Assembly (NCBI GenBank): GCA_963823665.1
Contig: CAWGMQ010000010.1
Span: 896,001-960,000 of the forward strand
Reading direction: 5' to 3'
DNA: 64,000 nt
Source: an uncultured Planctomycetota bacterium
GTDB lineage: Bacteria > Planctomycetota > Planctomycetia > Isosphaerales > Isosphaeraceae
The notes below the pieces were generated by a model, which was given only the letters and a program-made list of their open reading frames with translations, ran no database searches and was not told the DNA's origin. Numbering within the stretch: the first letter of the stretch is position 1; each line of letters begins with the position of its first letter. Positions 29,295 to 64,000 of the stretch are shown piece after piece. The translations under genes were made by a program, and so were the position numbers.

Positions 29295-29372
29295 CTTCCC
29301 GGCTCCGGAAACAGCCAGTGCGTGTCGTCTACCAAGAAGAGACAGAAAAACTGCGCGAGGTCACGAAAAAAA

Positions 29373-29393
29373 TCAGGCTAAAGCCTGCCCTAC
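29373..29393 (-). repeat. Single GTAG-type REP copy whose GTAG contains the ECF stop codon
   Basis: Minus strand reads GTAGGGCAGGCTTTAGCCTGA, with TAG at 29390-29392. Confidence 0.65.
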
Positions 29394-34824: not shown

Positions 34825-37800
34825 CTAACGTCCCCGCTGCCGGCGCCCGAAGGGTAAGCGGGCGGAAATCCTCCGAGCGGCTGACTTCCCGCCCAGGAGC
34901 AACCCCGCGCCGAAGCCGCAAAAGCCCCCAACCAGGAAGATCTCTGCAGGATCCTTGGACGGCTGCTCCTGAGGCCGGTCAGGTTCCCTTGACCCCAACG
35001 GGCCCGCCGGCGCCTTGGCCAACCCGGCTGCACCTTCCGGGCCGGCAACGAATTTCGGACGAACACCATTCAGCCAGGAAACCGCAACTCTCGGAGCCTC
35101 GACCGATGATGCTGCCGTGTGCGCCGCGGGAGCGACCAATCCAGCGGCTAGCTCGTCCAGATCCGAATCGAGCTCTCGGGCGGTGGAGAGCGCCGCGGCA
35201 AAGAGCGCCGAGCGATCGCAGGCATTGGCAAGATCACGCGCGAACTGCGGCAGTGATCCCGTTCGGTTGATGCTGGACTGCGGAACCACATGGCTCGAGC
35301 GCTCTGCCTGCGGTACCGCCGCAACCGACGGCCCGGCGAAGGCGAAGCTCTGAGTGTTTGCTCCGGCGGCAAACGGCGCGAAGATCAGGACCGTTGCGTT
35401 TGAAGCCGCCACCGCGGTGTGCTCGCTCACCACCGTCGTCACCGTCTGATCCTGGAACGAGGCCGAGCCGGCGCCCTGATTCGCAAGCGGCGCGTGGCCC
35501 TGTCCCGCGGCTGTGATGGTGAGGGAATCAAAGACGTTGATGACATCCGTCTCGGAGCCTTCACCGGACACCTGGCCGTCCAGGGTCGCGTCTTGTAGTG
35601 GGCCGACCTTCGCTCCGGAGTACGCCGTGCCTGCGCCCTGATACGCCACCAGGTCCGAAACAAGCAGGTTCGCGATCGGCGTGCCCAGACCGGTCACCAG
35701 GTTGTATCCTGATTCCGCATCGTATCCGTTGTTGCCGCTAGTGATGACGTTGTAATCGCTCTGCGGCAGACTGTAGAGGGCTTGTTGCACCTCGGTGGGG
35801 CTCGTGCTGTTCAAAACCGGTTGCCCGGCAACTTCCCGGCCCTGATTCACGAGTGCCAGCAAGCCGGCCCACGCAGGCGCCGACAAGCTGGTGCCGCCCA
35901 CGACCTCGAACGGGCTCGACGAGTCCGCCAGGTTGTAAGGATCCGCGATCCACGCACCCGTGGCCGGGTCTGCGACTAACGAAACATCGGGAGTGGTCCG
36001 GCCACCTGTTGCCTGGACTCCCTGCTGGTACGAAGGCTCGGGCTCGAACTGGCTGATCCCGCCTCCGGACCCGATCACCGTGCCCTGCGAGCCCGAGACG
36101 TTGCCCCAGCCGAGCTCATGATCGTAGGCCCCGAGATTGTTCAGATCGAGCGTCGTACCGCCGACCGCCAGCACATTCGGCGAGTACGCGGGATATTCCG
36201 GATCGGCAGCTCCGTAATCTCCCGTGCTCGCCACGAAGCTGACTCCGGGAACGTCGAGCATCGCGTCGTACGTGGCTTCGTCGCTCGCCGAGACACTCTG
36301 CCCTTCCGCGAAGCCCCAGCTCATCGAAACGACCGACACCCCCGGCTGGCCCGCCGCGGTGGCCACGGCCGCCATCAGGTCGGAAAGCGACTGGCTGTTG
36401 GCCTCCACCAGCACGATCTTCGCGCCCGGTGCGATGGCATGCGCCCATTCCACGTCCAGCGATTCCTCGACCTCCCAGTTGTCCGTTCCCGGGCCGTTGG
36501 GATCAGATGCCGGCAGCGATGTGCTCTGGCCGTCCTGCCCGATCACCGTCAAGAACGATGACGCCGGCCCGTACTGGTCGTAAAGCGACGGTCCCGAATC
36601 AGTGAGCCCGAACTGCGTGTCAAACGCATCGACCGCCGGGTAGATGTCTGGGTTGTCATAGGCGTCGACCAGGGCAATTGTCTGCCCGCTGCCATCGGTC
36701 GTGAGGCTGCTCACGCCGTACGCCGACCGAACCTGTGCGGGGCTGTACGCCACGGCTCCGTCTGGCGCCGACAGAGTGGCCACGTTCGTGATCGCATTAC
36801 CGCTGAGCGTGATCGTGTCGACGATGATCGACGCATTCAACTGGGCATCGCCGCTCTCGACTAGCCCGGCCGACGGAGCATAAATCGTGCCCGAAACCCC
36901 TGCCATCGCATTACCGCTGTAGGTGAGCACGTGCGTGTTGGCGGCAGGCTGGATGAAGAGCAGGTTCGCATATGTGCCCGTCGTTGCCGGAGTCAGCTTG
37001 AACGTGCCGTTGCCGCTCAAGGTGATGGCTCCCGAAGTACCGCCGCTCGAGGGGAACGCGCTGTTGGTGTTGTAGATCGTCACTCCCGTGCCGGTGACAC
37101 TCGCATTTCCGGAAACGGAGAAGCCTCCGCCTGTGATGATGTAGATGCCGGCGCTCATGGTCAGGCTGGCGTTGCCCGAGACAGCGATCGCGCTATAGAT
37201 ACCTGACTTGATCGTAGCCGTCGAGTTGCCGCTCAAACTGTACGAGCCGTAATTCGTCAGGCCCGTCTCACTCGGCACAGCGAGCCCTGAGAGCGGATCA
37301 TTCACGACGGCCGCTTTCGTCACCGCCGCCGGAGAGAAGCTCGCGTTGCCGCTCTTCGAGACGCTGCCATGCACGTCGATCACCGCCGCGTTGATCGCGG
37401 CGTTTCCACTGGCCAGAATTGCGCTGGACGAGCTGGAATCGACATACACCCCGCCCGTCAATTTGATGCTGGCGTTCCCTGAAATGCTGAGGGCTCCGCC
37501 GGCCGTGGGGTCCAGCACGATGAGCGACTGACCCATCGTGATCGTACTCGTCGCCGCGCTGCTCGTCAGGAAGTTCGAGTCGCCCGAATAAGTGACGGTG
37601 ATCGCGTGAGTACCCGATGACAACGCCGTTGTGCTGAGTGAGGCAGCTCCGCCTGAGAGAGCGACCGAGCCCAGGTCAACACTGGTCGTGGTGTCGAAGA
37701 AATCAACACTGCCGGTCGGAGTGCCCGAGCCGGGAGCGTTCGCCGTGACGGTCGCTGTGATCGTGACCGTCTGCCCAATGGAGCCGCTGGTTGTCGACGT

Positions 37801-40800
37801 CGTGGCCGCCGTGGTGGTCGTATCCTTGTTGATCGTGAGCGTGCCGGCAACATACGTGAACGAGTAATTGGGATCAACCGCCCCGCTCACGGTGATCGCG
37901 TAGGTTCCGACCGGGCTGGTGATCGTGGCCGTTGTCGACGCGGTTGGCAAGGTTGTGAGACTGCTCGAACTCTCGCCGGTCACGAAGCCAGAATAGCTCA
38001 CATTCGGAGCCGGGTTGGCCTGCCCGTAGACCTTGGACGCGTTATTGGCGGTGATGGTCAGCGGGGCGGTATTGACCGTCAGGGTGCCGTTCTTGTAGGT
38101 GATGCTGTAATTGGAGAGTCCCGAGCCGGTGGCGGCGCTGGGGGTGATGGTCCAGGGTGTGGCGCTGTAGTTGTAATTTCCGGAGCTGCTGAGCGTGGCG
38201 TTGGTGGAGAGCGTGACGCCGCTGATCGAGTCGCCGGAAATCAGGCCGGACTCGGTGAAGCCGGTGGTGCCGCTCAGGCTCACACTGCCGTAAGTGCCGG
38301 AGACGTTGTTGGCGGTGATGGCCAGCGGTGCGGCGATGATCTTGCCGTTCGAGTCGGAGAGCGAACTGGTCGTGAGGTTGTAGTCACCCGAGTCGACGCC
38401 GCCCAGGACCAGGTTGGTGTAGGTGACCGTCTTGCCGCTGCCGACATTCTTATTGTTGTAATTGCCGGTCGCGGAGAGCGTCACGACGTCGCCGGAGACC
38501 GGGGTGGACAGGGTGTAATCGCTGCCCAGGGTTGCGGTGGTGGTGCCGTCGTAGGTCTTCTGCTCGACGGCTCCGTTGAGCGCGGCGGTGATGCTGAGCT
38601 TGCTGATAGTGAGGCCGACCGGAGCGGCGTCATAGGTGATGCTGTAATTGGTGAGCCCCGAGCCGGTCGCAGCGCTGGGCGTGATGGTCCAGGGGGTGGC
38701 GCTGTAGTTATAGTTTCCTGAGCTGCTGAGCGTGGCATTGGTGGTCAAGATGACACCGCTGATCGAGTCGCCCGAGACGAGGCCAGACTCGGTGAAGCCG
38801 GTCGTGCCGTTCAAGCTCACGCTGCCATACGTGCCGGAGACGTTGTTGGCGGTGATGGCCAGCGGTGCGGCGATGATCTTGCCGTTCGAGTCGGAGAGCG
38901 AACTGGTCGTGAGGTTGTAGTCGCCCGAGTCGACGCCGCCCAGGATGAGGTTGGTGTAAGTGACCGTCTTGCCGCTGCCGACATTCTTATTGTTGTAATT
39001 GCCGGTCGCGGAGAGCGTCACGACGTCGCCGGTGACCGGGGCGGACAGGGTGTAATCGCTGCCCAGGGTTGCAGTGGTGGTGCCGTCGTAGGTCTTCTGC
39101 TCGACGGCTCCGTTGAGCGCGGCGGTGATGTTGAGCTTGCTGACGGTGAGGCCGTTCGGGGCGGTGTCATAGGTGATGCTGTAATTGGTGAGTCCCGAGC
39201 CGGTGGCGTCGCTGGGGGTGATGGTCCATTGCGTGGCGCTGTAGTTGTAATTTCCGGAGCTGCTGACCGTGGCGTTGGTGCTCAGCACGACGCTGCTGAT
39301 CGAGTCGCCGCTGACGAGGCCGGACTCGGTGAAGCCGGTGGTGCCGCTCAGGCTCACGCTGCCGTAAGTGCCGGAGACGTTCTTGGCCGTGATGGTGAGC
39401 GCGGCGGTGTCGATCTTGCCATGGGCGTCAGAGAGCGAAGTGTTGGTGAGGTTGTAGTCGCCGGCGTCGAGTCCGCCCAGGGCCAGATTGGTGTAGGTGA
39501 CGGTCTTGCCGCTGCCGGCATTCTTGGTGTCGTAATTGCCGGTGGCCGACATTGTCACGAAGTCGCCGGCGACCGGAGTGGAGAGGGTGTAATCATTGCC
39601 CAGAGCGGCGCTGGTGGTGCCGTCATAGGTCTTCTCCTCGACCGCTCCGTTGAGCGCAGCGGTGATGTTGAGCTTGCTGATGGTGAGGCCCGTCGCGGCG
39701 TTGGCATAGACGATGGTGTAATTGGAGAGTCCCGAGCCGGTGGCGTTGCTGGGGGTGATGGTCAAGGGGGTGGCGCTGTAGTTGTAATTTCCGGAGCTGC
39801 TGAGCGTCGCGTTGGTGGTCAGCGTGACGGCGCTGATCGAGTCGCCGCTGACGAGGCCGGACTCGGTGAAGCCGGTGGTGCCGCTCAGGCTCACGCTGCC
39901 GTAAGTGCCGGAGACGTTCTTGGCCGTGATGGTGAGCGCGGCGGTGTCGATCTTGCCATGGGCGTCGGAGAGCGAAGTGTTGGTGAGGTTATAGTCGCCG
40001 GCGTCGAGTCCGCCCAGGGCCAGGTTGGTGTAGGTGACGGTCTTGCCGCTGCCGGCATTCTGGGTGTCGTAAGTGCCGGTGGCCGACAGCGTGACGACGT
40101 CGTCGGTGACCAGAGTGGAGAGGGTGTAATCATTGCCCAAGGCGGCGCTGGTGGTGCCGTCATAGGTCTTCTCCTCGACGGCTCCGTTAAGCGCGGCGGT
40201 GATGTTGAGCTTGCTGATAGTGAGGCCGTTCGGGGCGGTGTCATAGGTGATGCTGTAATTGGTGAGTCCCGAGCCGGTAGCGTTGCTGGGGGTGATGGTC
40301 AAGGGGGTGGCGCTGTAGTTGTAATTTCCGGAGCTGCTGAGCGTCGCGTTGGTGGTCAGCGTGACGGCGCTGATCGAGTCGCCGCTGACGAGGCCGGACT
40401 CGGTGAAGCCGGTGGTGCCGCTCAGGCTCACGCTGCCGTAAGTGCCGGAGACGTTCTTGGCCGTGATGGTGAGCGCGGCGGTGTCGATCTTGCCATGGGC
40501 GTCAGAGAGCGAAGTGTTGGTGAGGTTGTAGTCGCCGGCGTCGAGTCCGCCCAGGGCCAGATTGGTGTAGGTGACGGTCTTGCCGCTGCCGGCATTCTTG
40601 GTGTCGTAATTGCCGGTGGCCGACATTGTCACGAAGTCGCCGGCGACCGGAGTGGAGAGGGTGTAATCATTGCCCAGAGCGGCGCTGGTGGTGCCGTCAT
40701 AGGTCTTCTCCTCGACCGCTCCGTTGAGCGCAGCGGTGATGTTGAGCTTGCTGATGGTGAGGCCCGTCGCGGCGTTGGCATAGACGATGGTGTAATTGGA

Positions 40801-43800
40801 GAGTCCCGAGCCGGTGGCGTTGCTGGGGGTGATGGTCAAGGGGGTGGCGCTGTAGTTGTAATTTCCGGAGCTGCTGAGCGTCGCGTTGGTGGTCAGCGTG
40901 ACGGCGCTGATCGAGTCGCCGCTGACGAGGCCGGACTCGGTGAAGCCGGTGGTGCCGCTCAGGCTCACGCTGCCGTAAGTGCCGGAGACGTTCTTGGCCG
41001 TGATGGTGAGCGCGGCGGTGTCGATCTTGCCATGGGCGTCGGAGAGCGAAGTGTTGGTGAGGTTGTAGTCGCCGGCGTCGAGTCCGCCCAGGGCAAGATT
41101 GGTGTAGGTGACGGTCTTGCCGCTGCCGGCATTCTGGGTGTCGTAAGTGCCGGTGGCCGACAGCGTGACGACGTCGTCGGTGACCAGAGTGGAGAGGGTG
41201 TAATCACTGCCCAGGGCGGCGCTGGTGGTGCCGTCATAGGTCTTCTCCTCGACGGCTCCGTTAAGCGCGGCGGTGATGTTGAGCTTGCTGATAGTGAGGC
41301 CGTTCGGGGCGGTGTCATAGGTGATGCTGTAATTGGAGAGTCCCGAGCCGGTGGCGTTGCTGGGGGTGATGGTCAAGGGGGTGGCGCTGTAGTTGTAATT
41401 TCCGGAGCTGCTGAGCGTCGCGTTGGTGGTCAGCGTGACGGCGCTGATCGAGTCGCCGCTGACGAGGCCGGACTCGGTGAAGCCGGTGGTGCCGCTCAGG
41501 CTCACGCTGCCGTAAGTGCCGGAGACGTTCTTGGCGGTGATGGTGAGCGCGGCGGTGTCGATCTTGCCGTTGGCGTCGGAGAGCGAAGTGTTGGTGAGGT
41601 TGTAGTCGCCGGCGTCGAGTCCGCCCAGGGCCAGATTGGTGAAGGTGACGGTCTTGCCGCTGCCGGCATTCTGGGTGTCGTAAGTGCCGGTGGCCGACAG
41701 CGTGACGACGTCGTCGGTGACCAGAGTGGAGAGGGTGTAATCACTGCCCAGGGCGGCGCTGGTGGTGCCGTCATAGGTCTTCTCCTCGACGGCTCCGTTA
41801 AGCGCGGCGGTGATGTTGAGCTTGCTGATAGTGAGGCCGTTCGGGGCGGTGTCATAGGTGATGCTGTAATTGGAGAGTCCCGAGCCGGTGGCGTTGCTGG
41901 GGGTGATGGTCAAGGGGGTGGCGCTGTAGTTGTAATTTCCGGAGCTGCTGAGCGTCGCGTTGGTGGTCAGCGTGACGGCGCTGATCGAGTCGCCGGTGAT
42001 GAGGCCGGACTCGGTGAAGCCGGTGGTGCCGCTCAGGCTCACGCTGCCGTAAGTGCCGGAGACGTTCTTGGCGGTGATGGTGAGCGCGGCGGTGTCGATC
42101 TTGCCGTTGGCGTCAGAGAGCGAATTGCTGGTCAGGTTGTAGTCGCCGGCGTCAAGGCCGCCCATGGCCAGATTGGTGAAGGTGACGGTCTTGCCGCTAC
42201 CGGCATTCTGGGTGTCGTAAGTGCCGGTGGCCGACAGTGTCACGACGTCGTCGGTGACCGGGGTGTAAAGGGTGTAATCACTGCCCAGGGCGGCGCTGGT
42301 GGTGCCGTCATAGGTCTTCTCCTCGACGGCTCCGTTAAGCGCGGCGGTGATGTTGAGCTTGCTGATAGTGAGGCCGTTCGGGGCGGTGTCATAGGTGATG
42401 CTGTAATTGGTGAGTCCCGAGCCGGTGGCGTCGCTGGGGGTGATGGTCCATGGCGTGGCGCTGTAGTTGTAATTTCCGGAGCTGCTGAGCGTGGCGTTGG
42501 TGGAGAGCGTGACGCCGCTGATCAACTCGCCGGTGATGAGGCCGGACTCGGTGAAGCCGGTGGTGCCGCTCAGGCTCACGCTGCCGTAAGTGCCGGAGAC
42601 GTCCTTGGCGGTGATGGCCAGCGCGGCAGTGTCGATCTCGCCGTTGGCGTCGGAGAGCGAAGTGTTGGTGAGGTTATAGTCGCCGGCGTCGAGTCCGCCC
42701 AGGGCCAGGTTGGTGTAGGTGACGGTCTTGCCGCTGCCGGCATTCTGGGTGTCGTAAGTGCCGGTGGCCGACAGCGTGACGACGTCGTCGGTGACCAGAG
42801 TGGAGAGGGTGTAATCATTGCCCAAGGCGGCGCTGGTGGTGCCGTCATAGGTCTTCTCCTCGACGGCTCCGTTAAGCGCGGCGGTGATGTTGAGCTTGCT
42901 GATAGTGAGGCCGTTCGGGGCGGTGTCATAGGTGATGCTGTAATTGGTGAGTCCCGAGCCGGTGGCGTCGCTGGGGGTGATGGTCCATGGCGTGGCGCTG
43001 TAGTTGTAATTTCCGGAGCTGCTGAGCGTGGCGTTGGTGGAGAGCGTGACGCCGCTGATCGAGTCGCCGGTGATGAGGCCGGACTCGGTGAAGCCGGTGG
43101 TGCCGCTCAGGCTCACGCTGCCGTAAGTGCCGGAGACGTTCTTGGCGGTGATGGTGAGCGCGGCGGTGTCGATCTTGCCGTTGGCGTCAGAGAGCGAATT
43201 GCTGGTCAGGTTGTAGTCGCCGGCGTCAAGGCCGCCCATGGCCAGATTGGTGAAGGTGACGGTCTTGCCGCTACCGGCATTCTGGGTGTCGTAAGTGCCG
43301 GTGGCCGACAGTGTCACGACGTCGTCGGTGACCGGGGTGTAAAGGGTGTAATCACTGCCCAGGGCGGCGCTGGTGGTGCCGTCATAGGTCTTCTCCTCGA
43401 CGGCTCCGTTAAGCGCGGCGGTGATGTTGAGCTTGCTGATAGTGAGGCCGTTCGGGGCGGTGTCATAGGTGATGCTGTAATTGGTGAGTCCCGAGCCGGT
43501 GGCGTCGCTGGGGGTGATGGTCCATGGCGTGGCGCTGTAGTTGTAATTTCCGGAGCTGCTGAGCGTGGCGTTGGTGGAGAGCGTGACGCCGCTGATCGAG
43601 TCGCCGGTGATCAGGCCGGACTCGGTGAAGCCGGTGGTGCCGTTCAGGCTCACGCTGCCGTAAGTGCCGGAGACGTCCTGGGCGGTGATGGTCAACGGCG
43701 CGGGTGTGATGACCTGACTGATGGGATTGGAACTCGACCCCTGATTATTCGCGTCGCCGCCGTAGACGGCAATGATCGTGTATGGGCCGCCGCTCACGGT

Positions 43801-46800
43801 CAGCGACGAAGTACTGAACGTCGCGATGTCCTGTCCGTCGACGACACCCAGCGTGCCGGTGCCGAGCTCGTCGTCCGGGTTCACTTCTCCGGTGTAGAAC
43901 GTCACGGTGCCTGTCGGCGTGCCGTAGCCCATCACTGTGGCGGTGAACGTGGCGGCCTGGCCGTAGACCACGGGCTCGGGCGCCGCCAGCACCGTTGTGG
44001 AAGCGCCGGACGAGACGATCCCGCCGGTTGCGGTGAACTGCAGCGTGGTGGTTATGTCGCCGCCGTTCTGATCGGTGATCTTGAAGGTGACAGTGTATGT
44101 CCCGGCTTCCTCCGGAGTGAACGTGAAGGTCTGGGCGGTTCCGTCGGGGATCGCCTGGTTGCCCGGAGCAACGACTTTCCAGTCAAACGTTTGGACGTCG
44201 GCGTCGTCCGGGTCGACGAATGAGCCGGTCAAGGTGACGGGCTCGCCCGCGACAACAGTGGACTGGTTGACAACCGCGGAGACGTCCAGGTAAGGCACTT
44301 GCCGATGAAATTGACGTTGCCGGAGCCGTAGATGATGGTGTCCGCCTGAAGCTGGGCGGAGACGGTGTCGTTTCCCGTCCCGGCGACAATCGTGTCGCTG
44401 CCCGAGCCGGCATACATCGTGTCGCCCGCACTGGCGAGGCCAAGAGGCATGGTGTCGGCAGTGGAAAGGCCGCCAGCCGTAGAGGCACCCGTGGCAAACG
44501 TGTACATGAAAAGCTCGTAGGCGCCGGTCAGCGGCTCATTGAGCGACACCGATTTAGGAGACGACGTGACCATCGCGTAATAGGTGCCGGTCTCCGCCAG
44601 GGTCAGGTCGAGAATCGTCGAATCCGTGTCCTGGAACGAGTCGTCGTCGTACGCGACGACGTTGCCTGCCGAGTCGTAGATCGTGAGCGCCGTGTCGAAG
44701 GCCCCCTGGGGCCGGTTGAGCACCGCCGACATGACCTCGAAATTGATCAGGGTTCCGGCCGTGGCCGTGAACGAGTAGTAGTCCGTATACGAGTTGCCCT
44801 GGCTGTCCGTGCTCAGGTAGCCGACCACGTCGGCCGCGGTGACGTCAAACGAGCGGTCGGCGTTCACACCTTCGAGGTCGGTGTCCGGCACGACCACGGG
44901 CTCGAGCGCAACGGCCTGAGCGGTTGCCATCGTGTAGTGGGGCGCAGTCTGCTCGTTGACCGGAGACCCGTCCTCGCCGTAGGCGAGCTTGATCGCCTCG
45001 CGCTCGCCGAAGTACGGGTCGTCGATGGCGTCGAAGAGAGTGGCGTTGACCGACGCTCCGGAGGCCATGATATGCCGTACCGTCTCGGTGGCGTCGACAG
45101 GCCCGGTGAAAGCGGGGACATAAAGGTCGGGGTTCACCCCGCTGTAGATGCCCGAGCCGATCGGCCCGAACGAGTCGCCGTGCTCGAGCCCCGAAAGGTG
45201 CCCCAGCTCGTGGGCAGCGATCGTTGCTGAAAGAGCAACAAAGTCGGCGCTCGTGGCGGCGGGCTCGCCCGGGCTTCCCAGCAGGTCGTTGACGTTGACC
45301 CCGGCCTGGTCTGCCGGCGTGATCTGGAACCCCGCTTCGGTCAAGGTCGTCGAGCCGGCGATGTCCAGGTCGCGCCAGTCGATCCCCGTGGCGATGCCTC
45401 CTTCCAGGCCCGTCAGTACCGGGTCGTTGAAGTAGATCGTCGTGTAGACCCCCGACTCTGGCGGCGACAGCGTGAACACGTACGAGAAATCGGCGTAATC
45501 GGCGACGAGCTGTGACTCGATCGCGCTCTCCTCGTCCGGGGTGTAGATGTGCTGACCGGGCAGCTCGTAGTCGCTGAAGTCGAGATAGATCGTGCGCGTC
45601 ACGCCGCCTTCGAGAAGGTCGTTGCCGCCCAGCCCGGCGATCAGATCGTCGCCCCCGCCGCCGATCAACGTGTTGTCGCGAGCGTTGCCAATGATCGTGT
45701 CGTCGTAGCCGCTGCCCAGGACGTCGGCGATCCCCATCGGATTGGATAACGTCAGCGTGAGCGTGCCCGGGATCACCGCCTGAGCACCAGCCGCGCTCAG
45801 GTTGATATTGACGCCGGCCGGCGCTTGCGAGAAATCGAGCCACGCATTCGCAGTGTCGCTCGCCTCGTCGATCGTCTGGCTGCCGCTCGAGCCGCTGTTG
45901 AACGCGAACGTGTCGTTGCCGCCGCCACCGACGAGCGAGTCGTTGCCGGTACCCGAGACCAGCGTGTCGTCGTTGCTCGAGCCGACGAGCGTGTCGTTGC
46001 CGGTTCCGGCGATCAAGAGCGTGCCCCCGGAGAAGCCCGAGGCGTCGAGCGTGAAGTCGCCGGCACCCGCGGCGAGGACGGCGTTCTGGAACCCGCTGAT
46101 CGGGTCTTCGATCGCCTGCCCGGTGCCTCCATAGGCCGAGAACATGGTGTCGGTGAGCGTCATGTTGTTCGCGCCGAAGAAGCCGAACCAGGAATCGAAG
46201 CCCCCCCCGGCCGTGATCGAGTCGTATCCTGTGCCCGCGGCGATCGTCGCATTGCCGGTGCCGCCATCGATCGTGTCGTTGCCCGGCCCTCCGTAGATGA
46301 TGTCGTTGCCCGAGCCGCCGGTGATCGAGTCGGCGCCGTCGCCCGCCGAGATCGTGCTGTTGCCCGAGCCGCCGTAGATCACGTCGTCGGCCTTGCCGCC
46401 GTTGATGTAGTCGTCGCCTGATCCGCCGGTGATCGTGTTGTCGCCGGCACCGCCGTAGATGATGTCATTGCCCGAGCCGCCGGTGATCGAGTCGCTGCCG
46501 GATCCACCGGTGATCGTGGTGTTGCCGCTGCCGCCGTAGATGATGTCGTTGCCGGCGCCGCCGTTGATCGAGTCGTTGCCGCTGCCGCCGGTGATCGTGC
46601 TGTTCTGTGAGCCCCCGTAAATGATGTCGTTGCCGCTGCCGCCGGTGATCGAATCATTGCCGCCGCCCGCTGTGATCGTGTTGTTGCCCGAACCGCCATA
46701 GATGATGTCGTTGCCGCCCCCACCGACGATCGAATTGTTGCCGGATCCGCCGGTGATCGTGTTATTGCCCGACCCACCATAGATGATGTCGTTGCCCGTG

Positions 46801-49800: not shown

Positions 49801-52800
49801 CCGACCACGATCGCGCCGTCGTCGATTCCCACCGCCGTTCCGAAGGCGTCGCCGGTGGTCGGGGTCGGTTCCTGGAAGGCGCCGATCGCATTGCCGAAGG
49901 TCGGGCTCGACGGGTCGGCGTCGAAGAGATACGCGGCCCCGGCGTCGTGTGTACCGAGGTTTGCTCCGGGCGCACCGATCAAGGCCTGGTTGCCCGTGCC
50001 TGCGACCGAAGCACCGAATTCACCGCCGCCTCCGTCAGGCTGGACGAACATCTCGGGCGATCCGGGCGAGTTAAAGCTGGGCGAGCTAAAGAACAGGAAC
50101 GCTGCACCGGCGCCGCCATCATCGAGCGGCGACCCGATCAGGACGTTCGATCCGACCGCCGCGACGGCCGCCCCGAACTCGCCGCCACCGTCGGGAGGCA
50201 AGAACGTCTGGAGCATGCTCCCGGAAGTGCCGTAGAGAAACGCCGCGCCCTGCGGGCCGGCGTTCGCATCCAGCGGCGATCCAATCAGCACGTCGTCTCC
50301 CACGGCCGCGACCGCAGCCCCGAAACTCTTCGTCTCGTAGTCGGGGTTGGCTATCGTCGTCAACAAAGCGCCGGTCGTATCGTCGAACAAATAGACCTTT
50401 CCGAGTGTCGGATTCATCGGTGAATCGGCGTACGGTGCTCCGACGGCAACCTCGTTCCCCAGCCCCCCTACGGCCGCGCCGAACTGTGCGGGAACAAGGC
50501 CGGTATTACCCGGGAACGACAACGTCAAGAGCAGCGAGCCGAACGTGGTGCTATCCGGGTTCGCATCGAACACATACGCCACGCCCTGGCCCGCGCCGGG
50601 CGCCCGACGATCAGATCGTCGCCGAAATCCGCGACCGATGCGCCGAACAGATCGCCGGCCGTCGCGCCCGGATCCTGGAAGACGTGGATCAGCGAGCCGT
50701 ACCTGTATGGCGTCGACACGCCATCGTCGGTGGGTACGCCATCATAAAGATCGACTGCGCCACCGTTGCCAGCCTGGGGCGCCCCGATCACCACGTTGCC
50801 GTCGATCGCAGCCACAGCCGTTCCGAATCCGTCGCCGGATGTCGAGCTCGAGAATGTCTCGGGCGGCGTGAACGAATCCGGCGTGAAGACCGGCGGCACG
50901 TCGCTCACAGTCACGGTAGCCGTCGCGGTGCTCACGCCGCCAAAGCCGTCGTCGACCGTCAAGGTCACCGTCTCGACTCCGGGCTTGGTGTAGGCGTGAA
51001 TCGGGTCCGGCCCGGTCCCCGTGGCGCCGTCGCCGAATGTCCAGAAATAGCTGAGCGAACCGTTGTTGGGGTCAATTGAGCCCGAACCGTTGAACGGGAT
51101 CGACACCCCTTCGTCGACGGTCAGCTTCGTGAAGCTAATCTTCGCGGTGGGGGGAATGTCGGAGCCGAACGCTTGAGAGAATTCCGAAGTATTGCCGGCG
51201 GGGTCAGTCGCCGTCGCGGTGACGAACTGCACCCCCGTTGCCGGGGTCGGGAACGAGAACGTGAAGTGGGCTGTTCCGCTTGCATCAATGGGAACCGGTC
51301 CTGAGCCCAGCACGTAACGCCCTTCGCCGTAGCCCGAGGCATTACTCGACGAGAGCGTGTAAAAGTCGAGCATGAACGTCGTGTTCGCGGTGCTCTCGAG
51401 AGAGCCCATGACCGTCGTCATGCCGCCGGTGCTCGTCACCGCGGTGATGACCGGGTAGTTCTCATAGTTGTTGGGGCCCGTAAGTGGCGTCGCCGAAATC
51501 GGGGTCACCACGTTGCCGCCCAGACCGATCCCGAGACCATGATTCGAGAAAATCGAGTTCAGCCGGATCGTGTTGCCGGTGCCGGCAGACGCGTCGACGT
51601 CGACTCCAAGGCCGGTGTGGAGTGACGTGCCCGTACTGAACGCGATCGTGTTGCCGGCTGCCGCCGCGCTCCCGCCGATCGTGTTGTCCGATGATCCGTA
51701 CTGGATGAGGATGCCGGTGCCGTTGCCCAGTGCGACCGATCCCGTTGGATCGGTGCCGATCTTGTTGGCCTGGATGAGCACACCGCTGTCGCTCCCCACC
51801 AGGTCGATGCCGGCGCCCGAGTTGCTCGAGATGACGTTGCCCACGCCCGCCGCGGTGCCGCCGATCGTCACGTCGCTCACATCGCCGAGCTCCAGTCCAT
51901 CGCCCAGGTTGCCGAGAGCGATTTTCCCGGTCTTGTCGGTGCCGATGTAGTTGCCCAGCACCAGGGCTCCCGAAGAGGCGCTCCCCTGGATCGAGACGCC
52001 CACATAGGCGTTGGCCGAGATCACGTTCCCGGCCCCCTCCGCCGTGCCGCCGATGGTCGTGCCGGGGGAGGCGATGTCGACTATGCCCGAGCCGGTATTG
52101 GCTAGCGGTCCCGTTCCATCTTGATTCACACCGATGTAGTTTCCCTGAATCAGCGTACCGGAGGCACCACCCTCAACCTCGATGCCGTTGATGCCATTGT
52201 TCAGGCCGCCATTGCCCGAGATCACGTTGAGGGCGACGGCGGTCGTGCCGCCGATCGTGGTGTTCAAGGCACCCGTGACGGCGATGCCGGAATTCGTGTT
52301 GCCGACGGCAGAGATACCGTTTGCATCGGTTCCAATCAGGTTCCCGGCGATCAGGGTTCCGGTTGCCCCGCCGCTCACCGACACGCCTTCGGCATTGCCC
52401 GAGAGGACGTTTCGCCCGCCGCCGGAAACCCCGCCGATCGTGCTGTCCGTCGCACCCGCAACGTCGACGCCTGCGCCCGCGTTGCCAAGCGGCGTCTCTC
52501 CGGTTGTGTCGGTCCCGATCTGGTTTCCCGCGACCACGTTGTCCGCAGTGGCCGCGCCGTTCAACAACACTCCGTCGCCAAGATTGCCCGAGATGAGATT
52601 GCCGTCGCCGGCGGCCGTGCCGCCGATCGTGTTGCTCGACGCGCCGGAAGCGATCTCGACGCCCGTGGCGTTGGCGATCGCGACCGTGCCGCTCGGGTCG
52701 GTGCCGATCATGTTGCCTTCGACCACGTTGCCTGTAGCACCGGAGCCGGTGATCTGAACCCCATAGCTCGCGTTGCCCGAAATCACGTTGCCCGCCGGAG

Positions 52801-55800
52801 CGGACGTGCCGCCGATCGTATTGCCCGATGCACCGGCGCCGATCACAATGCCGATCTGGTTGGGCGCGGCGGCCGTGCCCGAGGCATTCGTGCCGATATA
52901 GGAACTCTGGACAACGTTGCCCGAGCTTTCGATCAAGATTCCGTCCTGGCTGAAATCGCTGATCACCACTCCGCTGATCTCGCTCCCGGCGGACCCGGCC
53001 GCCAGCACGAGCCCGCTCGCGCTCCCCGTACTCGTGCCATCCAGTTGGATGATCGGCGCGCCCGCGTATCCCGGCTGGGTCGTCGCGTCGAGATCGACCA
53101 CAGCGGTGATGAACGGCAGCGGCGAAAGCGGCGAGATCAATTGCACGCCGCCTCCAGGAATATCGAAGTCGATCGCAAACGGGCCGGACGATAGGTCGGC
53201 GGCCTCGATCGCGGCCCTCAATGAACCGTCGCCCATGTCGGCAGTGGTGGTGACGATGTACGATTCGATGACGTCGAGGTCGAATTGCGTCGGGTTCGTA
53301 ACCGGGCGGAAATTCAGGCTGCTGCTGATCTCAAGGCCGGATTCCGAGCTGAACGCGCCGGTGACCGAGCCGTAGTTGATGATCGGGAAGCTGTTGCCGA
53401 GAACGGGTGTGAATCCACCAAGCAGGGTGACGTCCAGTGCCCCGCCCAGGGTGAGCTGGCCGGTGACGTTGAGCTGGCTGAACCCGCTGCCCGGACTGTA
53501 GCCCCCGACTCCCACGTCGAGCTGGCCGCCTGCTGCTAGCGTGAAATTGCCTTCTATGTTCAGGATGCCGGGATCGGCGACGTTGATCGTTCCCTGGTTG
53601 AGCAGGCTGGTGGTCGTTGTGAACGATGCGCCGTCCGAGAGCTCCAGGGTGCCGCCCGGCGCGATGTACGCGAGCGACGAAAGAGCGGGGAAGCTTGCAC
53701 CCGGTCCGTCCAGGATGATCGTGGCGGCGTCGGTCGCGATATTGCCCCCGGGGAAATTGAGCGTGCTGTCGGCCCCCACGCTCCAGGTGCCGCCCGTCAG
53801 CAGGCCCGGCGTAAAATTCGACGGGGCCGTTTCAAGGTTGATCGTGCCGCCGTTCGTTGCTGCGATTGTGCCTGAGCTGGTCCAGTCGGTGCCGTAGATC
53901 TGTACGCTGCCCCCGCTCGTGTTGGCGTCGATGGTGCCCTCGAGGACGATTGGAGTCTCGGGGCCACCGTGGTCGTATCCGATAACCCCGTCAGTCCCCT
54001 GGACGGTGATGTTCGGCCCGATGGTTAGGGCTCCCGAATCGCCGCCGCTCGAGGCGGTGTTGATCTGGTCGCCTTCGTAGAAGTTGCCGAAGACGATCGA
54101 GCCGGTGCCTGAGAGGGTTTGTGCGCCCTGGAAATTGAGTTCGCTGATTCCGGAGGCGTCAGTGGGTCCGAGGTCGATGGTGCCGTTGAGTGTCAATCCC
54201 TGGGTCACGGTGATGGTGTCCCCGATTGTGGTCATGTCGACGGTGCCGTCGATCGTGACGCCGTCCAGGGTGCCGGCGCCGCCGACCAGGGTGGCGCCAT
54301 TGGTCGTTTCGACGGTGCCGCCATCGATAGTGCCGCCATCCAGAGCGAACTCGAGCGCGGGATCATCAAGACTCAAGGTGTCGCCGTTGTTATCGAGAGT
54401 GCCGTTGAGAAAGACATCGCCGGCCCCGGCAAAGGACGATCCGGGAAGAGTGGAGCCCGTACCCAGGAGGTAAACGCTGGCACCGGCGCCCCCGGAGACC
54501 ACGCCGTCGTCGCTCCAGGTGCCTTCGACAACGGCAAATCCGCCGTTCGTCGCCGCGATCGTCCCCGAGTTGGTCCAGTTGGTGCCGTTCAAGACGAGTT
54601 GGCCGCCGTCGGTGGTCTCGATCGTGCCGGTGTTCGTCCAGCTCGTGCCGATGATCTGAATGTAGCTCGCGCTGGTGCTCGCGTCGATCGTGCCCTCGAG
54701 GACGAGCGGGGTCTCGGTGCCACCGCCGTTATACCCGATGAAGGCCGCAGTCCCGTCGATCGTGATGTTGGGTCCGATGGTGAGGGTGCCCGAATCACCG
54801 CCGCTCGAGGCTGTGTTGATCTCTTCGGGCTCGTAGCCGGCGCCGCCCAGAACGATCAAGCCGGTGCCACCGAGGGTTTGTGCGCCCTGGAAATCGAGTG
54901 TGCTGCTTCCATTCGCGGGGTCAATGGGCCCGAGGTCGAGCGTGCCGTTGAGCGTCAATCCGTCGGTGACGGTGATGGTGTCTCCGTTTTCGTTCTCGTC
55001 GAGGGTGCCGTCGATCGTGACGCCGTCCAGGGCGCCGTCGCCCACCAAGGCAGCGCCGCCCGTCGTTTCGACCGTCCCGCCATCGATCGTGCCGGCATCG
55101 AGCGTGAAGGCCAGTGTGGGGTCATTGAGCGTCAATATCTCTCCGGTGTTGTCGAGCGTGCCCGCAAGATCGATGAGGCCGCTGCCTGCGAAGGACGAAT
55201 CCGAGCCGACGGAGAAGGTTCCCTCAAGATTGACCTGGGAAGTGGAATCGGCGGAGATGACGCCGTTATCGGTCCAGGTGCCGCTCGCGGTGACGTAGCC
55301 GCCACCGGTCGCCTCAATCGTGCCCGAGTTGGTCCAGTTGGTGCCACTTAAGCCGAGTTGGGCGCCGGCGGCGGTGGCTTCGATTGTGCCTGAGTTGGTC
55401 CAGTTTGTTCCGAAGATCTGAATGTAGCTCGCGCTGGAATTCGCGTCGATGGTGCCCTCGAGGACGAGTGGGGTTTCGGTGCCAGGGCCGCTGTCATACC
55501 CGATGGAGGCCGCAGTTCCGTCGATCGTGATGTTGGGTCCGATGGTAAGCGTGCCCGAATCGCCGCCGCTGCTGACTGTGTTGATCCTTTCGGGGTACGA
55601 GCCGTCGCCGCCTAGAACGATCAAGCCGGTGCCACCCAGGGTTTGTGCGCCCTGGAAATCGAGTGTGCTGGTTCCATTCGCGGGGTCAGCGGGCCCGAGG
55701 TAGAGCGTGCCGTTCAAGGTCAATCCGTCGGTGACGGTGATGGAGTGCCCGCCATTGTTCACGTCCAGTGTGCCGTCGATGGTGACGCCGTCCAGGGTGC

Positions 55801-58800
55801 CGCCGGCGAGACTGGCGACCAGGGCGGCGCCGTCCGTCGTTTCGACCGTGCCGCCATCGATCGTGCCGCCAACGACAGCGAAGGAGAACTCGGGGTCATT
55901 GAGAGTCAAGGTCTCACCGGTGTTGTCGAGAGTGCCCTCGAGATAGACATCGCCGGCGCCTGCGAACGACGAACCCGAGTCGACCGAGAAGGTTCCCTGG
56001 AGGTTGATCAAGGAGGTGGAATCCACGGACATGAGGCCATCATCAGTCCAGGTGCCTGAACTTACGACGTAGCCGCCATTGGTGGCCTCGATCGTGCCCG
56101 AGTTGGTCCAGTTGGTGCCACCCAAATCGAGTTGGGCGCCGGCGGCGGTGGCTTCAATTGTGCCTGAGTTGGTCCAGTTTGTTCCCGCGATCAGAATGTA
56201 GCTCGCGCTGGAATTCGCGTCGATGGTGCCCTCGAGAACGAGTGGGGTTCTCGGTGCCAGGGCCGCCGTCATACCCGATGGAGGCCGCATTCCCCTCGAT
56301 CGTGATGTTGGGCCCGATGGTCAGGGTGCCCGAATCGCCGCCGCTTGAGGCTGTGTTGATCGATTCAGCGTAGCTGCCCGAGCCGCCTAGAACGATCATG
56401 CCGGTGCCACCCAGCGTTTGTGCGCCCTGGAAATTGAGTGCGCTGGCTCCATCCGCGGGGTCAGCGGGCCCGAGGTAGAGCGTGCCGTTCAAGGTCAATC
56501 CGTCGGTGACGGTAATGGAGTGCCCGCCATTGTTCACGTCCAGAGTGCCGTCGATGGTGACGCCGTCCAGGGTGCCGCCGGCGAGACTGGCGACCAGGGC
56601 GGCGCCGTCCGTCGTTTCGACCGTGCCGCCATCGATCGTGCCGCCAACGACAGCGAAGGAGAGCTCGGAGTCGTTCAGAAGCAAGGTCTCACCGGTGTTA
56701 TCGAGAGTGCCCTCGAGATAGACATCGCCGGTGCCTGCGAAGGACGAACCCGAGTCGACCGAGAAGGTTCCCTGGAGGTCGATCAAGGAAGTGGAATCCA
56801 CGGACATGAGGCCATCATCAGTCCAGGTGCCTGTCGTTGCGACGTAGCCGCCATTGGTGGCCTCGATCGTGCCCGAGTTGGTCCAGTTGGTGCCACCCAA
56901 GTCGAGTTGGGCGCCGGCGGCGGTGGCTTCGATCGTGCCCGTGTTGGTCCAGTTGGTGCCGTTGAGTTCGATTCCGCCGCCGCTGGCCTCGATCGTGCCC
57001 GAGTTGGTCCAGTTGGTGCCGTAGACCCCTATGCTGCCCCCGCTGATGTTCGAGTCGATGGTGCCCTCAAGGACGAGTGGAGTCTCGGTGCCACCGTTGT
57101 CGGCTCCGATCGAGCCGCTATTCCCCTGAATGGTGATGTTCGGGCCGATGGTGAGGGTGCCCGAGTCACCGCCGCTCGAGGCGGTGTTGATCGCGTTGCC
57201 GGCGGAGCCAAAGACGACCGAGCCGGAGCCGCCCAGGGTCTGTGCGCCTTGGAACACGAGCGTTCCCGATGGGCCACCGGCGACCGGGGCGCCGATGTCG
57301 ATCGTGCCGTTATCAAGTGTCAGTCCGCCGGTGACGTCGAGCGTGGGTTGGTACCCGGCCATGTTGAGGGTGCCATCGAGAGTGACCCCATCCAAGGTGC
57401 CGCCAAGGTAGGTGGCGGAGAGCGCGGCGCCGCCCGTCGTTTCGACCGTGCCGCCATCGATCGTGCCGCCAGCGACAGCGAAGGAGAGTCCAGGGTCATC
57501 GAGAGTCAAAGTCTCGCCGGTGTTGTCGAGAGTGCCCTGGAGATAGACAACGCCGGTACCGGCGAATGAGGCGCTGGATTGGACGGAGAAGGTGCCATTG
57601 AGATAGATGGTGGACGTCGAATCCGCGTTGATGGTGCCGTCATCGGTCCAGTTACCCTCGAGGTAGCCGGTGCTGCCGCTGCTGGCTTCGATTGTGCCTG
57701 AGCTTGTCCAGTTGCCTTCAAGGTACACGGAGCTGCTGTTGCTGGCTTCGATCGTGCCTGTGTTGATCCAGTTGGTGCCGTAGACACGTATGGTGCCCCC
57801 GCTGATGTTCGCGTCGATCGTGCCCTCGAGGACCAGCGGGGTCTCGGTGCCACCGCCGTCATACCCGATGAGGCCCGCAGTCCCGTCGATCGTGATGTTG
57901 GGCCCGATCGTGAGGGTGCCGGAGTCGCCGCCACTGGATTCGGTGTCGATGAAGTTGTCGCCGTCGGAGCCAAAGACGACCGAGCCGGAGCCGCCCAGGG
58001 TCTGTGCGCCCTGGAATGTGAGCGCGCAAATGTGCCGCCGGCGACCTGGCTGCCGAGGTCGATCGTACCGTCATCAAGTGTCAGACTGCCGGTGACGTCG
58101 AGCGTGGAATAGGCCCCGGTCATGTCGAGGGTGCCGTCGAGGGTGACGCCGGCGAGCGTGCCGGCCGAGTTGGGGGCGATGAGCGTGGCGCCGCCCGTCG
58201 TTTCGACCGTGCCGCCATCGATCGCGCCGCCGTCGAGCATGAAGGCCAGTCCGGAGTCATCGAGAGTCAAGGTCTCGCCGGTGTTATCCAGGGTGCCCCT
58301 GAGATACATGACCCCGGTGCCTGCGAACGACGAGCCTGAATCGACGGAGAACGTCCCATCGAGGTAGATCTGCGAGGTCGAATCCACCGAGATGACGCCG
58401 GGATCGATAAAGGAATTCTCGAGATAGGCGGTGCTGCCTGTCGTGGCCTCGATCGTGCCCGCGTTGGTCCAGTTGGTAGGGGAGACATCGAGTGTGGCGC
58501 CGCCGGTGGCCTCGATTGTGCTTGAGTTGGTCAAGTCGGTGCCGGTCAGGCCGAGACTACTGCCGCCAGTGGCTTCGATCGTGCCCGAGTTGGTCCCGGT
58601 GGTGCCATTGAGGCCGAGTTGGGAGCCGGCGGCAGTGGCCTCGATTGTGCCTGAGTTGGTCCAGTTGCTGCTGGTGGCGGTTACAATGCCGCCGTTGGCG
58701 GCTTCGATTGCGCCTGAGTTGGTCCAGTTGGTGCCATTCAAGCCGAGTTGGGCGCCGGCGGCGGTGGCTTCGATCGTGCCGGAGTTGGTCCAGTTTGTTC

Positions 58801-61800: not shown

Positions 61801-64000
61801 GTTCGATCGAGCCGCTCTGGCCTTCGATGGTGATTCCGGAACCGATTGTGAGCGTGCCCGAATCACCGCCCGAGGATGCGGTGTCAAGCCGATTGTTGTA
61901 AAGATTGCCGCCGCCGAAGACGATCGTGCCGGTGCCGCCCAGGGTCTGAGCACCCTGGAACGTGAGGTCGCAATAAATCGAGCCCGCGCCATTTCCGATC
62001 AAGATCGAACCATTACTCAGCGTGAGGCCACCGGTGACCGTGAGGCGCGGAATAGTTCGTCGCCATGTCGAGGGTGCCGTCGAGGGTGACGCCATCCAAG
62101 GTGCCGCCACTGTTGGTGGCGAACAGGGCAGCGCCGCCCGTCGTTTCGACCGTGCCGCCATCGATCGTGCCGCCGGCGATACCGAAGGAGAGCTCGGGGT
62201 CGTTGAGAGTCAAGGTCTCCCCGGTGTTATCAAGAGTGCCCTCGAGATCGACAACGCCGGAGCCTGCGAACGATGAGCCCGAGTCAACGGAGACGGTTCC
62301 CCGGAGGTAGCTCACGGAGGTGGAATCCACCGAGACGACGCCGGGATCGGTGAGCGAGCCGGCGAGAACGGCGATGCCGCCGCTCGTGGCCTCGATCGTG
62401 CCCGAGTTGGTCCAGTTGGTGCCGGTGGCGCTGACCATCCCGCCGGTCACCTCGATCGTGCCCGAGTTGGTCCAGTTGGTGCCGTAGAAGTTCAGGTTGC
62501 CGCCGTTCGTGCCCTCGATCGTGCCTGTGTTGATCCAGTTGGTGCCGTGGATCTGGATGGTGCCCCCGCTCAAGTTGGCGTCGATGGTGCCCTCGAAGAC
62601 GAGTGGGGTCAGGGCGCCACCGTTGTTGTACCCGATCGAGCCGCTATCCCCCTGGATGGTGATGTTCGGGCCAATGGTGAGTGTTCCCGAATCGCCGCCG
62701 CTGGAGGCGGATTCGATCTGGTTGTAGCCAGAGCCGAGACTGATCGTGCCGGTGCCGGATAAGGTCTGCGCACCGACGAAAATCAGGGCGCTACCGGTCG
62801 AGCCCATCGCATTTCCGAGCAAGATCGTGCCATCCAGCGTCAAGCCGCCGGTCACCGCGAGCAGGCCATCGTAAGTCGCCATGTCGAGAGTGCCGTCGAT
62901 TGTGACGTCGTCTGCGAGCGTGTTGTAAGGATCGGACACGAAGAGCGCGGCTCCGTTCGTCGTGACAACGCTGCCCCCGTCGATCTCTCCAGAATAGAGC
63001 TCGACCGTCAGTGCGGAATCATTCAGGGTCAACGTTCCGCCGGAGTTGTCGAGTGTGCCACTCAACTGAACGAGGCCCGAGCCGGAGAACGTCGCGCTCG
63101 AGCCGGCTGAGAAGGTTCCAGAGAGGTCGACCATGGAAGAGGAATCGGCGGAGACGACGCCGTTGTCGGTCCACGTGCCGGTCGCGTAGACGGAGCCGCC
63201 GGAAGTGGCTGAAATCGTGCCCGAGTTGGTCCAGTTGGTACCCTCGGCTTGGAGTGTGGCGCCGCCGGTGGCCTCGAGCGTGCCTGTGTTGGTCCAGTTG
63301 GTGCCGAAGATCTGGATATTCCCACCGCTGGTATTCGCGTCGACGACGCCCTGGATGATGAGCGGGGTCTGTGGACCGCCATCGTTGCCCCCGATCCCCC
63401 CGTTGTCACCTTCGATCGTGATGCCCGCGCCGATGGTAAGCGTGCCGGTATCGGCGCCGCCGCTGGATGCGGTATTGATCTGGTTGCTATCGATCAAGCC
63501 GAAGACGACCGTGCCGGTGCCGCCCAAGGTCTGCGAGCCCACGAAATTGAGGATGCCCGTGTTGGGGCTCGATGGGTTTCCGAGGAGAATGCTACCATTT
63601 AATGTCAGCCCGCCGGTCACCGTCAGCTCGGGTGCGTACTCACGGCCGTCGTCGATGGTTCCGTCGATCGTCACGCCGTCTGCGAGTGTGCCATTATTGG
63701 TGATGAAGAGGGTGGCTCCGTTCGTCATGACAACGGTGCCGCCGTCGATCTCTCCATTGTCCAGTGAGACTTCCAGCGCGGAATCGTCGAGGGTCAACGT
63801 GCCGCCGGAATTGTCGATCGTACCTTCCACGAGGACGTTGCCGGTGCCGGCGAACGAGGCATTCGACCCGAGGGAGACGGTACCGCGGAGGACGACTACT
63901 GACGTGGAATCGGCGGAGACGACACCATTATCGGTCCATGAGCCCACGCCTTCCGCGTAGCCGCCGTTCGTTGCGGCGATGGTTCCGGTGCTCGTCCAGT
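34825..64000 (-). CDS. Giant repetitive surface protein/adhesin of more than about 9,700 aa, 5' end outside the window, frameshifts near 62050, 58025, 56250, 50600 and 44295
   Basis: Six overlapping minus-strand ORFs whose repeats and domains run straight across the junctions. At 58025 and 56250 the sister repeats show the exact 1-nt indel. Uniform G/T/S/D-rich composition. Confidence 0.88.
35680..36750 (-). other. S53 (sedolisin/kumamolisin) peptidase domain within the giant protein
   Basis: EESLDVEWAHAIAP (catalytic Glu/Asp), VSMSWG, ASTGDYG (oxyanion Asp), PDVS, GGTSLSAP (Ser) and YNLVTGLGTP. Confidence 0.9.
38110..43700 (-). repeat. Ten full and one partial 537-bp (179-aa) tandem YDG + MBG-like repeats
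   Basis: NYNYSAT recurs every 537 bp from about 38163 to 43534 (11 times); E(E/Q)KTYDGTT occurs 10 times. Confidence 0.93.
44500..45600 (-). other. Metzincin-type zinc metalloprotease domain followed by a PPC-like domain within the giant protein
   Basis: HELGHLSGLEH at 45180-45212 with a downstream HIMASG Met-turn, then TDYYSF..FDTALTIYD..GTYYAMV. Confidence 0.8.
46190..48370 (-). repeat. RTX/hemolysin-type nonapeptide repeats (GGxGNDxxx) with an 81-bp super-period
   Basis: 22 successive GGSGNDIIY-type units spaced 81 bp apart from about 47994 to 46293, each followed by two other nonapeptides. Confidence 0.93.
48600..51150 (-). other. PKD/Ig-like domains and an FG-GAP (integrin-alpha-like) propeller within the giant protein
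   Basis: WTFGDG, IDWGDG and INWGDG PKD motifs; repeated FG.AVA..G..V.IG.P..GA.YL(F/Y) blades. Confidence 0.8.
51500..53260 (-). other. Right-handed parallel beta-helix region within the giant protein
   Basis: VTTTADMGDGSLRAAI followed by repeated N.IGT..G and TIGGT...GNVISGN units. Confidence 0.85.
53850..64000 (-). repeat. At least 13 copies of a G/T-rich repeat of about 232 aa or more (marker SSGGDSGTLTIG)
   Basis: The marker occurs 13 times between about 54040 and 63460; adjacent near-identical copies are spaced 696-699 bp apart. Confidence 0.9.

Follow-up and report, generated by a model that had tools for sequence, protein, structure and literature searches.

Planctomycetes are known for carrying giant genes (PMC5352709, PMC12673574 and 10.1101/2023.11.21.568195, in the parts available), and leader-bearing surface proteins of Tuwongella reach 10,566 amino acids (aa), some of them with trypsin domains, according to the available part of PMC8567305; giant planctomycete surface proteins are already known as a kind. 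The locus compared with them here is a giant minus-strand coding tract in a 64,000-nucleotide stretch of DNA (the window) from an uncultured bacterium of the Isosphaeraceae (assembly GCA_963823665.1, contig CAWGMQ010000010.1, positions 896,001 to 960,000). The tract encodes a leader, a long series of repeat and Ig-like modules, a zinc metalloprotease, an S53 (sedolisin-type) protease and a tail with the motif GFCG, and is followed by a gene for a GT4 glycosyltransferase. The balance of evidence tips slightly towards a single gene, split by assembly errors, whose product would be one exported, surface-anchored adhesin of about 1.4 MDa that digests protein. The window's genome (16.46 Mb, 12 contigs, 91.9% complete) is termed G000, the window being G000:C10:896001-960000; G001 is a same-genus genome, and "family" in genome counts means Isosphaeraceae.

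With the planctomycete leader proteins (motifs RRLxxExLExRxLLA and LxLExLExRxxP, PF07595; PMC8567305, PMC5352709, PMC12673574) the tract shares a very large size and Ig-like and calcium-binding repeats, and its basic leader, with LERRMMPS at the end, resembles theirs by eye; some described members also carry a trypsin protease domain. At 44 kb it compares with a maximum of about 36 kb cited in PMC5352709 and is close to the Tuwongella gene of over 40 kb. The available text of these descriptions does not mention an S53-metalloprotease pair, a GFCG tail or a linked GT4 gene. Metzincins with RTX or PPC (pre-peptidase C-terminal) domains (serralysin M10B, karilysin, the PPC of collagenase) share HExxHxxGxxH, a downstream Met, an adjacent RTX block and a PPC domain behind, but in the tract RTX stands before the protease, not after it, M10 and serralysin scores are under cut-off, and the enzyme is internal to a giant chain. 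Sedolisins (MEROPS S53; kumamolisin 1gt9, sedolisin 1ga1, TPP1 3ee6) have the same Glu-Asp-Ser, oxyanion Asp and subtilisin-like fold; unlike them, the S53 domain of the tract has no prosegment, stands at the far C-terminus of a giant behind a beta-solenoid, and belongs to a separate group in which the presumed calcium-site Asp is mostly Asn.

The type I-secreted RTX adhesins LapA and SiiE likewise combine a repeat stalk, RTX repeats and ligand-type domains, whereas the RTX block of the tract ends about 3,600 aa ahead of the C-terminus and is accompanied by an N-terminal planctomycete leader, a hydrophobic tail and proteases of its own. A type I-secreted RTX toxin or adhesin was considered and rejected: RTX repeats are present, but not near the C-terminus before a secretion signal. 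Serine-rich repeat adhesins have a dedicated neighbouring glycosyltransferase, GtfA/B, and the tract resembles them in being a Thr/Ser-rich giant directly followed by a GT4 gene; this GT4, however, scores no more than 21 bits with the GtfA model, whose cut-off is 575, glycosylation is only predicted, and no accessory Sec genes occur among the neighbours examined. The sequence-only reading of this DNA knew of no characterised protein with this combination, and our literature search likewise found none: the architecture is undescribed there, although similar proteins may appear among the giant genes tabulated in the supplements of PMC5352709 and PMC8567305, and nothing was found on the two-protease order, the pro-domain-free S53 group or the link between tail and GT4.

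That earlier reading had also proposed a continuous minus-strand coding tract of more than 29 kb which automatic annotation would split into six genes. Continuity is borne out by six overlapping minus-strand frames over 34825-64000 (3236, 2170, 1931, 638, 1567 and 661+ aa) and by a codon-position scan, in which coding signal runs along the entire tract and the frame switches only at seven junctions, five of them inside the window and the other two upstream of it, the lone exception being a 150-base flicker in the low-complexity tail linker. The extent had to be revised: followed along the contig, the tract was found to continue past the window end by 15,094 bases to a start at C10:975094. Its full length is therefore 44,270 bases, and it falls into eight pieces where the earlier reading had 29 kb and six. 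A translation that places X at each of the seven breaks has 14,748 aa (about 1.43 MDa, 4 Cys, 182 Lys+Arg) and no internal stop. The 15 kb upstream of the window encode a basic leader with LERRMMPS at its end, some 50 repeat marks of the parallel beta-helix type in a block that matches Beta_helix and NosD (Pfam), and three further 255-aa repeats. Within the window the order and counts of modules agree with those read earlier, including 13 long repeats and ten YDG units. The features of the tract, from its N-terminal to its C-terminal end, are as follows.

34825..64000, minus strand: window part of the giant coding tract; whole tract G000:C10:930825-975094, 44,270 bases, about 14,750 aa
53834..64000, minus strand: long repeats, 13 of 16 copies, 232-339 aa, Gly/Thr/Asn-rich, with the mark SSGGDxGxLTIG; putative beta-helix fold
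62040..62052, minus strand: frame switch J1; an orthologue 92% identical across it stays in one frame
58014..58026, minus strand: frame switch J2; a sibling repeat 88% identical across it stays in one frame
56246..56258, minus strand: frame switch J3; a sibling repeat 86% identical across it stays in one frame
51155..53833, minus strand: beta-rich segment without assignment, followed by a further parallel beta-helix block, short and capped, that is similar to the upstream one
50903..51154, minus strand: PKD domain (PF18911, E 2.5e-20)
49767..50900, minus strand: FG-GAP repeats, a presumed propeller, containing J4 (PF14312, E 7.7e-17)
near 50596, minus strand: frame switch J4, inside the FG-GAP repeats
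48372..49766, minus strand: PKD/Ig-like domains (weak PF18911), conserved in paralogues
45642..48377, minus strand: RTX calcium-binding repeat block, internal (PF00353, E 2.9e-151, 29 stretches)
44937..45602, minus strand: zinc metalloprotease with HExxHxxGxxH and downstream Met (metzincin-type motifs; weak karilysin and M10 matches)
44487..44936, minus strand: PPC domain (PF04151, E 7e-9; model matches collagenase PPC/CBD folds)
near 44296, minus strand: frame switch J5, upstream of PKD and Big_3
43702..44302, minus strand: PKD and Big_3 following J5 (Pfam)
37555..43701, minus strand: ten MBG/YDG units, two MBG_2-type domains and Big_3 (PF18657 x10, PF18676, PF16640)
36781..37530, minus strand: beta-solenoid, DUF7305/Tad-like (PF23981, 23.4 bits, cut-off 27; all-strand in the model)
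35641..36756, minus strand: S53 sedolisin-type catalytic domain with Glu-Asp-Ser and oxyanion Asp, without pro-domain (sequence, fold)
34825..35640, minus strand: conserved post-S53 extension, low-complexity linker and C-terminal tail (LDELA helix, PAGP[ML], GFCGFG, basic end); candidate anchor or sorting signal

Pfam cut-offs are passed by PKD, FG-GAP, RTX, YDG, MBG_2 and Big_3_5, and by PPC and Peptidase_S8 when these are cut out. The beta-solenoid matches, at 0.97 in Atlas, clusters with 12-14% DUF7305. The long repeats, called beta-helix-like in the earlier reading, are indeed present in 13 copies in the window, but their fold is a reading of sequence: the repeat of about 255 aa has no Pfam family and matches only unnamed Atlas clusters of low recognition. 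Two adjacent 232-aa copies (window ~60133-60829 and 59437-60133) hardly differ from each other, and the same holds for several MBG/YDG units (38338-43701), which suggests recent repeat expansion; the G001 orthologue has about ten long repeats and no YDG array.

The eight pieces are likely to be one gene split only by sequencing or assembly errors. A single base gained or lost accounts for each of the seven switches, which sit mostly in short runs, within repeats or domains, and every junction is crossed in one frame by homologues or sibling repeats; the frame breaks of the G001 orthologue lie elsewhere than in the G000 tract. Five large conserved genes of G000 were checked for the same kind of damage: rpoB has one indel, rpoC three and dnaE2 one (G000:C3:1630335-1640168 and C5:1375923-1378425), dnaE and carB none, making 5 in about 18 kb against 7 in the 44 kb of the giant tract. 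Because rpoB, rpoC and dnaE2 carry single-base indels, split genes anywhere in the G000 assembly deserve doubt; contig sizes and error pattern suggest that it was built from long reads. At one junction, J0b, a short-read contig of run X1 carries one more base, placed behind L033:19584 right at the switch; this is the sole indel listed and supplies the base that the tract lacks, while the other six junctions are without read evidence. The J0b contig, the indels in conserved genes and the homologues that cross all junctions together support the earlier proposal of one polypeptide instead of six genes, and the switches are probably not real breaks in the cell but assembly indels. Assemblies bearing such indels hide genes of this kind: the tract appears as eight fragments, and whole-frame scans missed both proteases.

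The S53 domain matches sedolisin in sequence (E 1e-16), and its model (predicted local distance difference test, pLDDT, 86.6) finds kumamolisin as best fold match (E 2e-19, TM-target 0.80), the top 17 Foldseek matches all being kumamolisin, sedolisin or TPP1. The window has the motifs EESLD, GGTSLS and STGD, the last supplying the oxyanion Asp. In alignment A1 (51 rows) Glu and the oxyanion Asp are kept in 43-44 of the 44-45 covering rows (oxyanion Asp 44/45), Ser in 43, one Ser count stemming from a misaligned solenoid-only row, and the catalytic Asp likewise in nearly all. The metalloprotease keeps HExxHxxGxxH in all 28 rows that cover the site; Met stands 38 residues past the zinc motif in 23 of 29 rows and is replaced by Ile or Leu in 6, in a region of low confidence in the model. 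Assignment of this enzyme to the metzincins, made in the sequence-only reading, rests on the zinc motif and a downstream Met, and profile and fold support are weak: PF00413 gives 15.2 bits against a cut-off of 24, which leaves M10 membership unsupported, and the fold search returned only weak astacin, meprin and InhA matches (E ~1e-3). The serralysin family was tried and rejected for the tract, its model scoring 236 against a cut-off of 500 and on RTX repeats only. The PPC domain behind the metalloprotease, as modelled, is well supported. Judged from sequence, both proteases have intact catalytic residues, are predicted to be active and are under purifying selection: by simple counting on one orthologue pair, with G001, dN/dS is lowest in the two enzymes, at 0.12 over the S53 domain and 0.17 over the metalloprotease, against 0.30-0.39 along the stalk. 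The earlier proposal of two mechanistically unrelated protease domains is thereby supported.

According to the available part of PMC6278154, sedolisins are acid proteases whose large prosegment helps them to fold. The 29 S53 matches in G000 make up 22 loci, of which 20 lack Pro-kuma_activ (PF09286); that domain was found at just 2, both of them other loci than the tract; here the domain is preceded by the solenoid, not by a prosegment. Five G000 loci have S53 behind a solenoid, and at least 3 (19/22 loci examined) start no more than two residues after the leader motif, so close that a prosegment would not fit in between. About 15 G000 S53 domains lie near an N-terminus or inside other proteins, several directly behind a leader. 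Examples from the whole G000 set of S53 loci are L079:12764-15295, L083:12286-13332 and L087:12671-13720, and two loci form a tandem pair at C4:1750761 and C4:1752351. In a quick tree of 42 of the 51 rows (the 9 that were no longer than 300 aa were dropped) with one pro-domain sequence for comparison, the solenoid-linked copies form a group of their own with a support of 99 in the SH-like approximate likelihood ratio test (SH-aLRT). S53 domains of the tract's kind occur in 72/121 family genomes at E 1e-60 and in 0/300 genomes of a phylum-wide draw at E 1e-40, and the literature search, with subscription literature outside its scope, found no paper on a pro-domain-free bacterial S53. A sedolisin that folds and stays quiet without its pro-piece would depart from the family picture, and G000 has 20 such loci.

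The giant is one of a family of shuffled paralogues. The metalloprotease cassette is present at 8 loci in G000, at 7 in G001 and in 9/24 other family genomes; it was found in 0/16 same-class genomes outside the family, and its distant relatives carry the names Gemmataceae and Pirellula. Among 31 distinct loci mapped, a core of beta-helix, PKD, FG-GAP, Ig, RTX, metalloprotease, PPC and PKD is shared, and stalks and C-termini vary: six end in a dockerin-type domain (PF00404 on P0012), others in a solenoid with or without a tail. An intact S53 follows the metalloprotease at 7 of the 31, at 3 of them in the same open frame (G000:C6, 3655 aa; G001:C4, 4551 aa; G014:C1, 1908 aa). The same order recurs in other genomes, in a single open frame at these 3 loci, but the pairing is less special than first thought, being one arrangement of shuffled modules; at several loci whose neighbours are the same, S53 is eroded or absent. 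S53 can be lost, since an internal deletion in L093 (12743-14653) removes the Glu-Asp and oxyanion motifs and only a stub of its first residues is left near 35800 of G021:C24; the solenoid-S53 cassette also caps giants without a metalloprotease, such as an open frame of at least 9,213 aa in G042 (L132-L133, G042:C280:21293-48934) that ends in solenoid and S53, has no metalloprotease match and leaves the contig. Behind two of the two-protease paralogues (G001:C4:3958344-3960491, G000:C6:554753-557029) the next same-strand frame is beta-helix-like, of 715-758 aa, and not GT4.

At the ends of the chain, the leader consists of a basic stretch and an LExR motif, read by eye and conserved in paralogues; its resemblance to the planctomycete surface-protein motif, as given in the available part of PMC8567305, lends support to the predicted export, and the composition of the chain (4 Cys and 182 Lys+Arg) is counted in its favour too. 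The last 75 residues carry PAGP[ML], followed by a hydrophobic GFCGFG segment and then by basic residues, and this hydrophobic-then-basic pattern is kept in 11/11 aligned tails although the linker diverges. A profile of these 11 rows matches 22/121 family genomes. The window tail has no Pfam match, and for three tails no NCBIfam sorting-signal model (PEP-CTERM and similar) matched at E 0.5.

A working scheme would run as follows. The basic LERR leader would route the giant out of the cell and the hydrophobic-then-basic GFCG tail hold its C-terminus in the membrane, the beta-helix, Ig and YDG/MBG repeats forming a long calcium-stiffened stalk with binding surfaces. The metalloprotease, with its presumably substrate-binding PPC, would cut outside protein bound mid-stalk; the anchor-proximal S53 domain might be activated by acid outside the cell, not by loss of a pro-piece, and cut nearby substrate or release the stalk. 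The neighbouring GT4 may glycosylate the Thr/Ser-rich chain before export. A cultured family member stems from an acidic wetland, according to the available text of PMC5352709. Planctomycete giant gene products are almost untested, and parts of this one are small enough for expression and assay.

Several observations weigh against the proposed single anchored adhesin. Read-level support comes at 1/7 junctions, from one contig at depth 2.8, and among the matches listed no contig bridges J4/J5 (contigs over 44000-54000) or J1-J3. At J5, P0001 (90% identical, from another assembly) and the more distant P0013 also end. Among 22 homologues with more than 55% identity, J5 is crossed by 11 and is the end point of 2, while 7 stop earlier and 2 behave otherwise; a rough test over all 85 matches gave 62 that read through and 3 that end there, and two JGI contigs read through as well. 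The frame is lost after GK in the window and after GKAP in P0001, a difference that fits separate errors at an error-prone spot. The tract leader matches no hidden Markov model in Pfam or NCBIfam, hydropathy of the best 19-residue stretch of the tail is only 1.3-1.7, and many paralogues end otherwise, for example in dockerin. Around its active site the metalloprotease is poorly modelled (pLDDT <50 at 343-390), and of 40 covering rows 30 have Asn and 8 have Asp at the position that we take to be the S53 calcium ligand. At 24/31 metalloprotease loci there is no S53, and cooperation between the two enzymes is therefore not a necessity. Lastly, linkage of tail and GT4 may reflect inherited gene order, as kin are not independent.

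GT4 is the first of four same-strand genes behind the giant.

33014..34759, minus strand: conserved neighbouring gene for a GT4 glycosyltransferase, separated from the giant gene by 65 bases
30126..33017, minus strand: Ser/Thr kinase gene, its start overlapping the GT4 stop (ATGA)
29390..30124, minus strand: ECF-type sigma factor gene
25341..29294, minus strand: second kinase-like, TPR-like gene, the kinase read by eye only

The GT4 gene occurs in 26/121 family genomes, mostly in one copy, and adjoins 13 of the 20 best tail matches. At 28 GT4 loci the tail lies directly upstream in 13 (8 of them training rows of the profile, 5 new), a similar giant adjoins in 4, and 11 have neither; away from giants (L168-L171, L173, L180) GT4 stands beside a frame that by eye is glycosyltransferase-like or methyltransferase-like. 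Conserved tail and GT4 neighbour together offer a handle on megadalton protein display in these bacteria. An extended scheme, which we put forward tentatively and regard as unlikely to hold in full, is a surface-display system of the Isosphaeraceae, with GFCG as sorting tail, a dedicated GT4, an acid-gated pro-domain-free sedolisin that sheds or matures the stalk, and a readout through kinase and ECF factor.

If the product were instead a secreted multi-enzyme precursor, it would leave the cell untethered and be cut into free pieces, the tail being no anchor. The modest tail hydrophobicity, the paralogues that end in dockerin or short non-hydrophobic tails and the roughly 15 S53 domains placed elsewhere in G000 proteins fit this; the tail pattern, kept in every alignment row while the linker diverged, does not, and a 6 kb MBG/YDG spacer and over 25 kb of repeats suit a stalk better than a free enzyme. 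We think such a precursor improbable. An equally low standing is given to an antenna for a signalling operon, in which the coupled Ser/Thr kinase, as controller of the ECF factor, would sense either cleavage of the giant or its constant tail. The giant, GT4, kinase, ECF and second kinase-like genes do follow one another in the same direction, spaced by 65, -4, 1 and 95 bases, and by eye kinase-like text follows GT4 at 8 or more of the 13 tail-GT4 loci, but kinase-like genes stand beside many of the loci fetched, which makes adjacency weak evidence. A conserved non-coding element that lies some 245 bases ahead of the giant gene start, and in which two T-runs flank GTCACA, also speaks against the antenna: it is present once per genome in G000 and G001 (L009:17334-17360, that is G000:C10:975334-975360, and G001:C4:1388193-1388219), and differs from that of the G000:C6 paralogue.

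Use of the long adhesin as a contact weapon, holding neighbouring microbes and attacking their surface proteins, has in its favour the RTX repeats, the expansion to 7-8 paralogues per genome in the genus and the giant peptidase-bearing proteins of Omnitrophota that 10.1101/2023.11.21.568195, in its available part, links to predation; it is nevertheless highly unlikely, as Pfam and NCBIfam scans gave no toxin, glycoside hydrolase or immunity-type partner and RTX-toxin models scored far below cut-off, on repeats only. Least probable of all is that the breaks are real, whether from gene decay, a set of separate genes or programmed frameshifting: six junctions without read evidence and the 2 of 22 homologues that stop at J5 are outweighed by 44 kb free of in-frame stops, switches within repeats and domains, different break points in G001, essential G000 genes broken alike, the 11 of 22 homologues and two JGI contigs that cross J5, the different residues at which frame is lost there, and dN/dS of 0.12-0.39.

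Two minor features of the window remain. A pair of T-runs loosely similar to the upstream element lies between the ECF and second kinase genes (29340-29375); a looser element pattern matched only this ECF-kinase spacer and missed the upstream element itself. Over 1-11000 the window has a strong negative GC skew, from -0.11 to -0.29.

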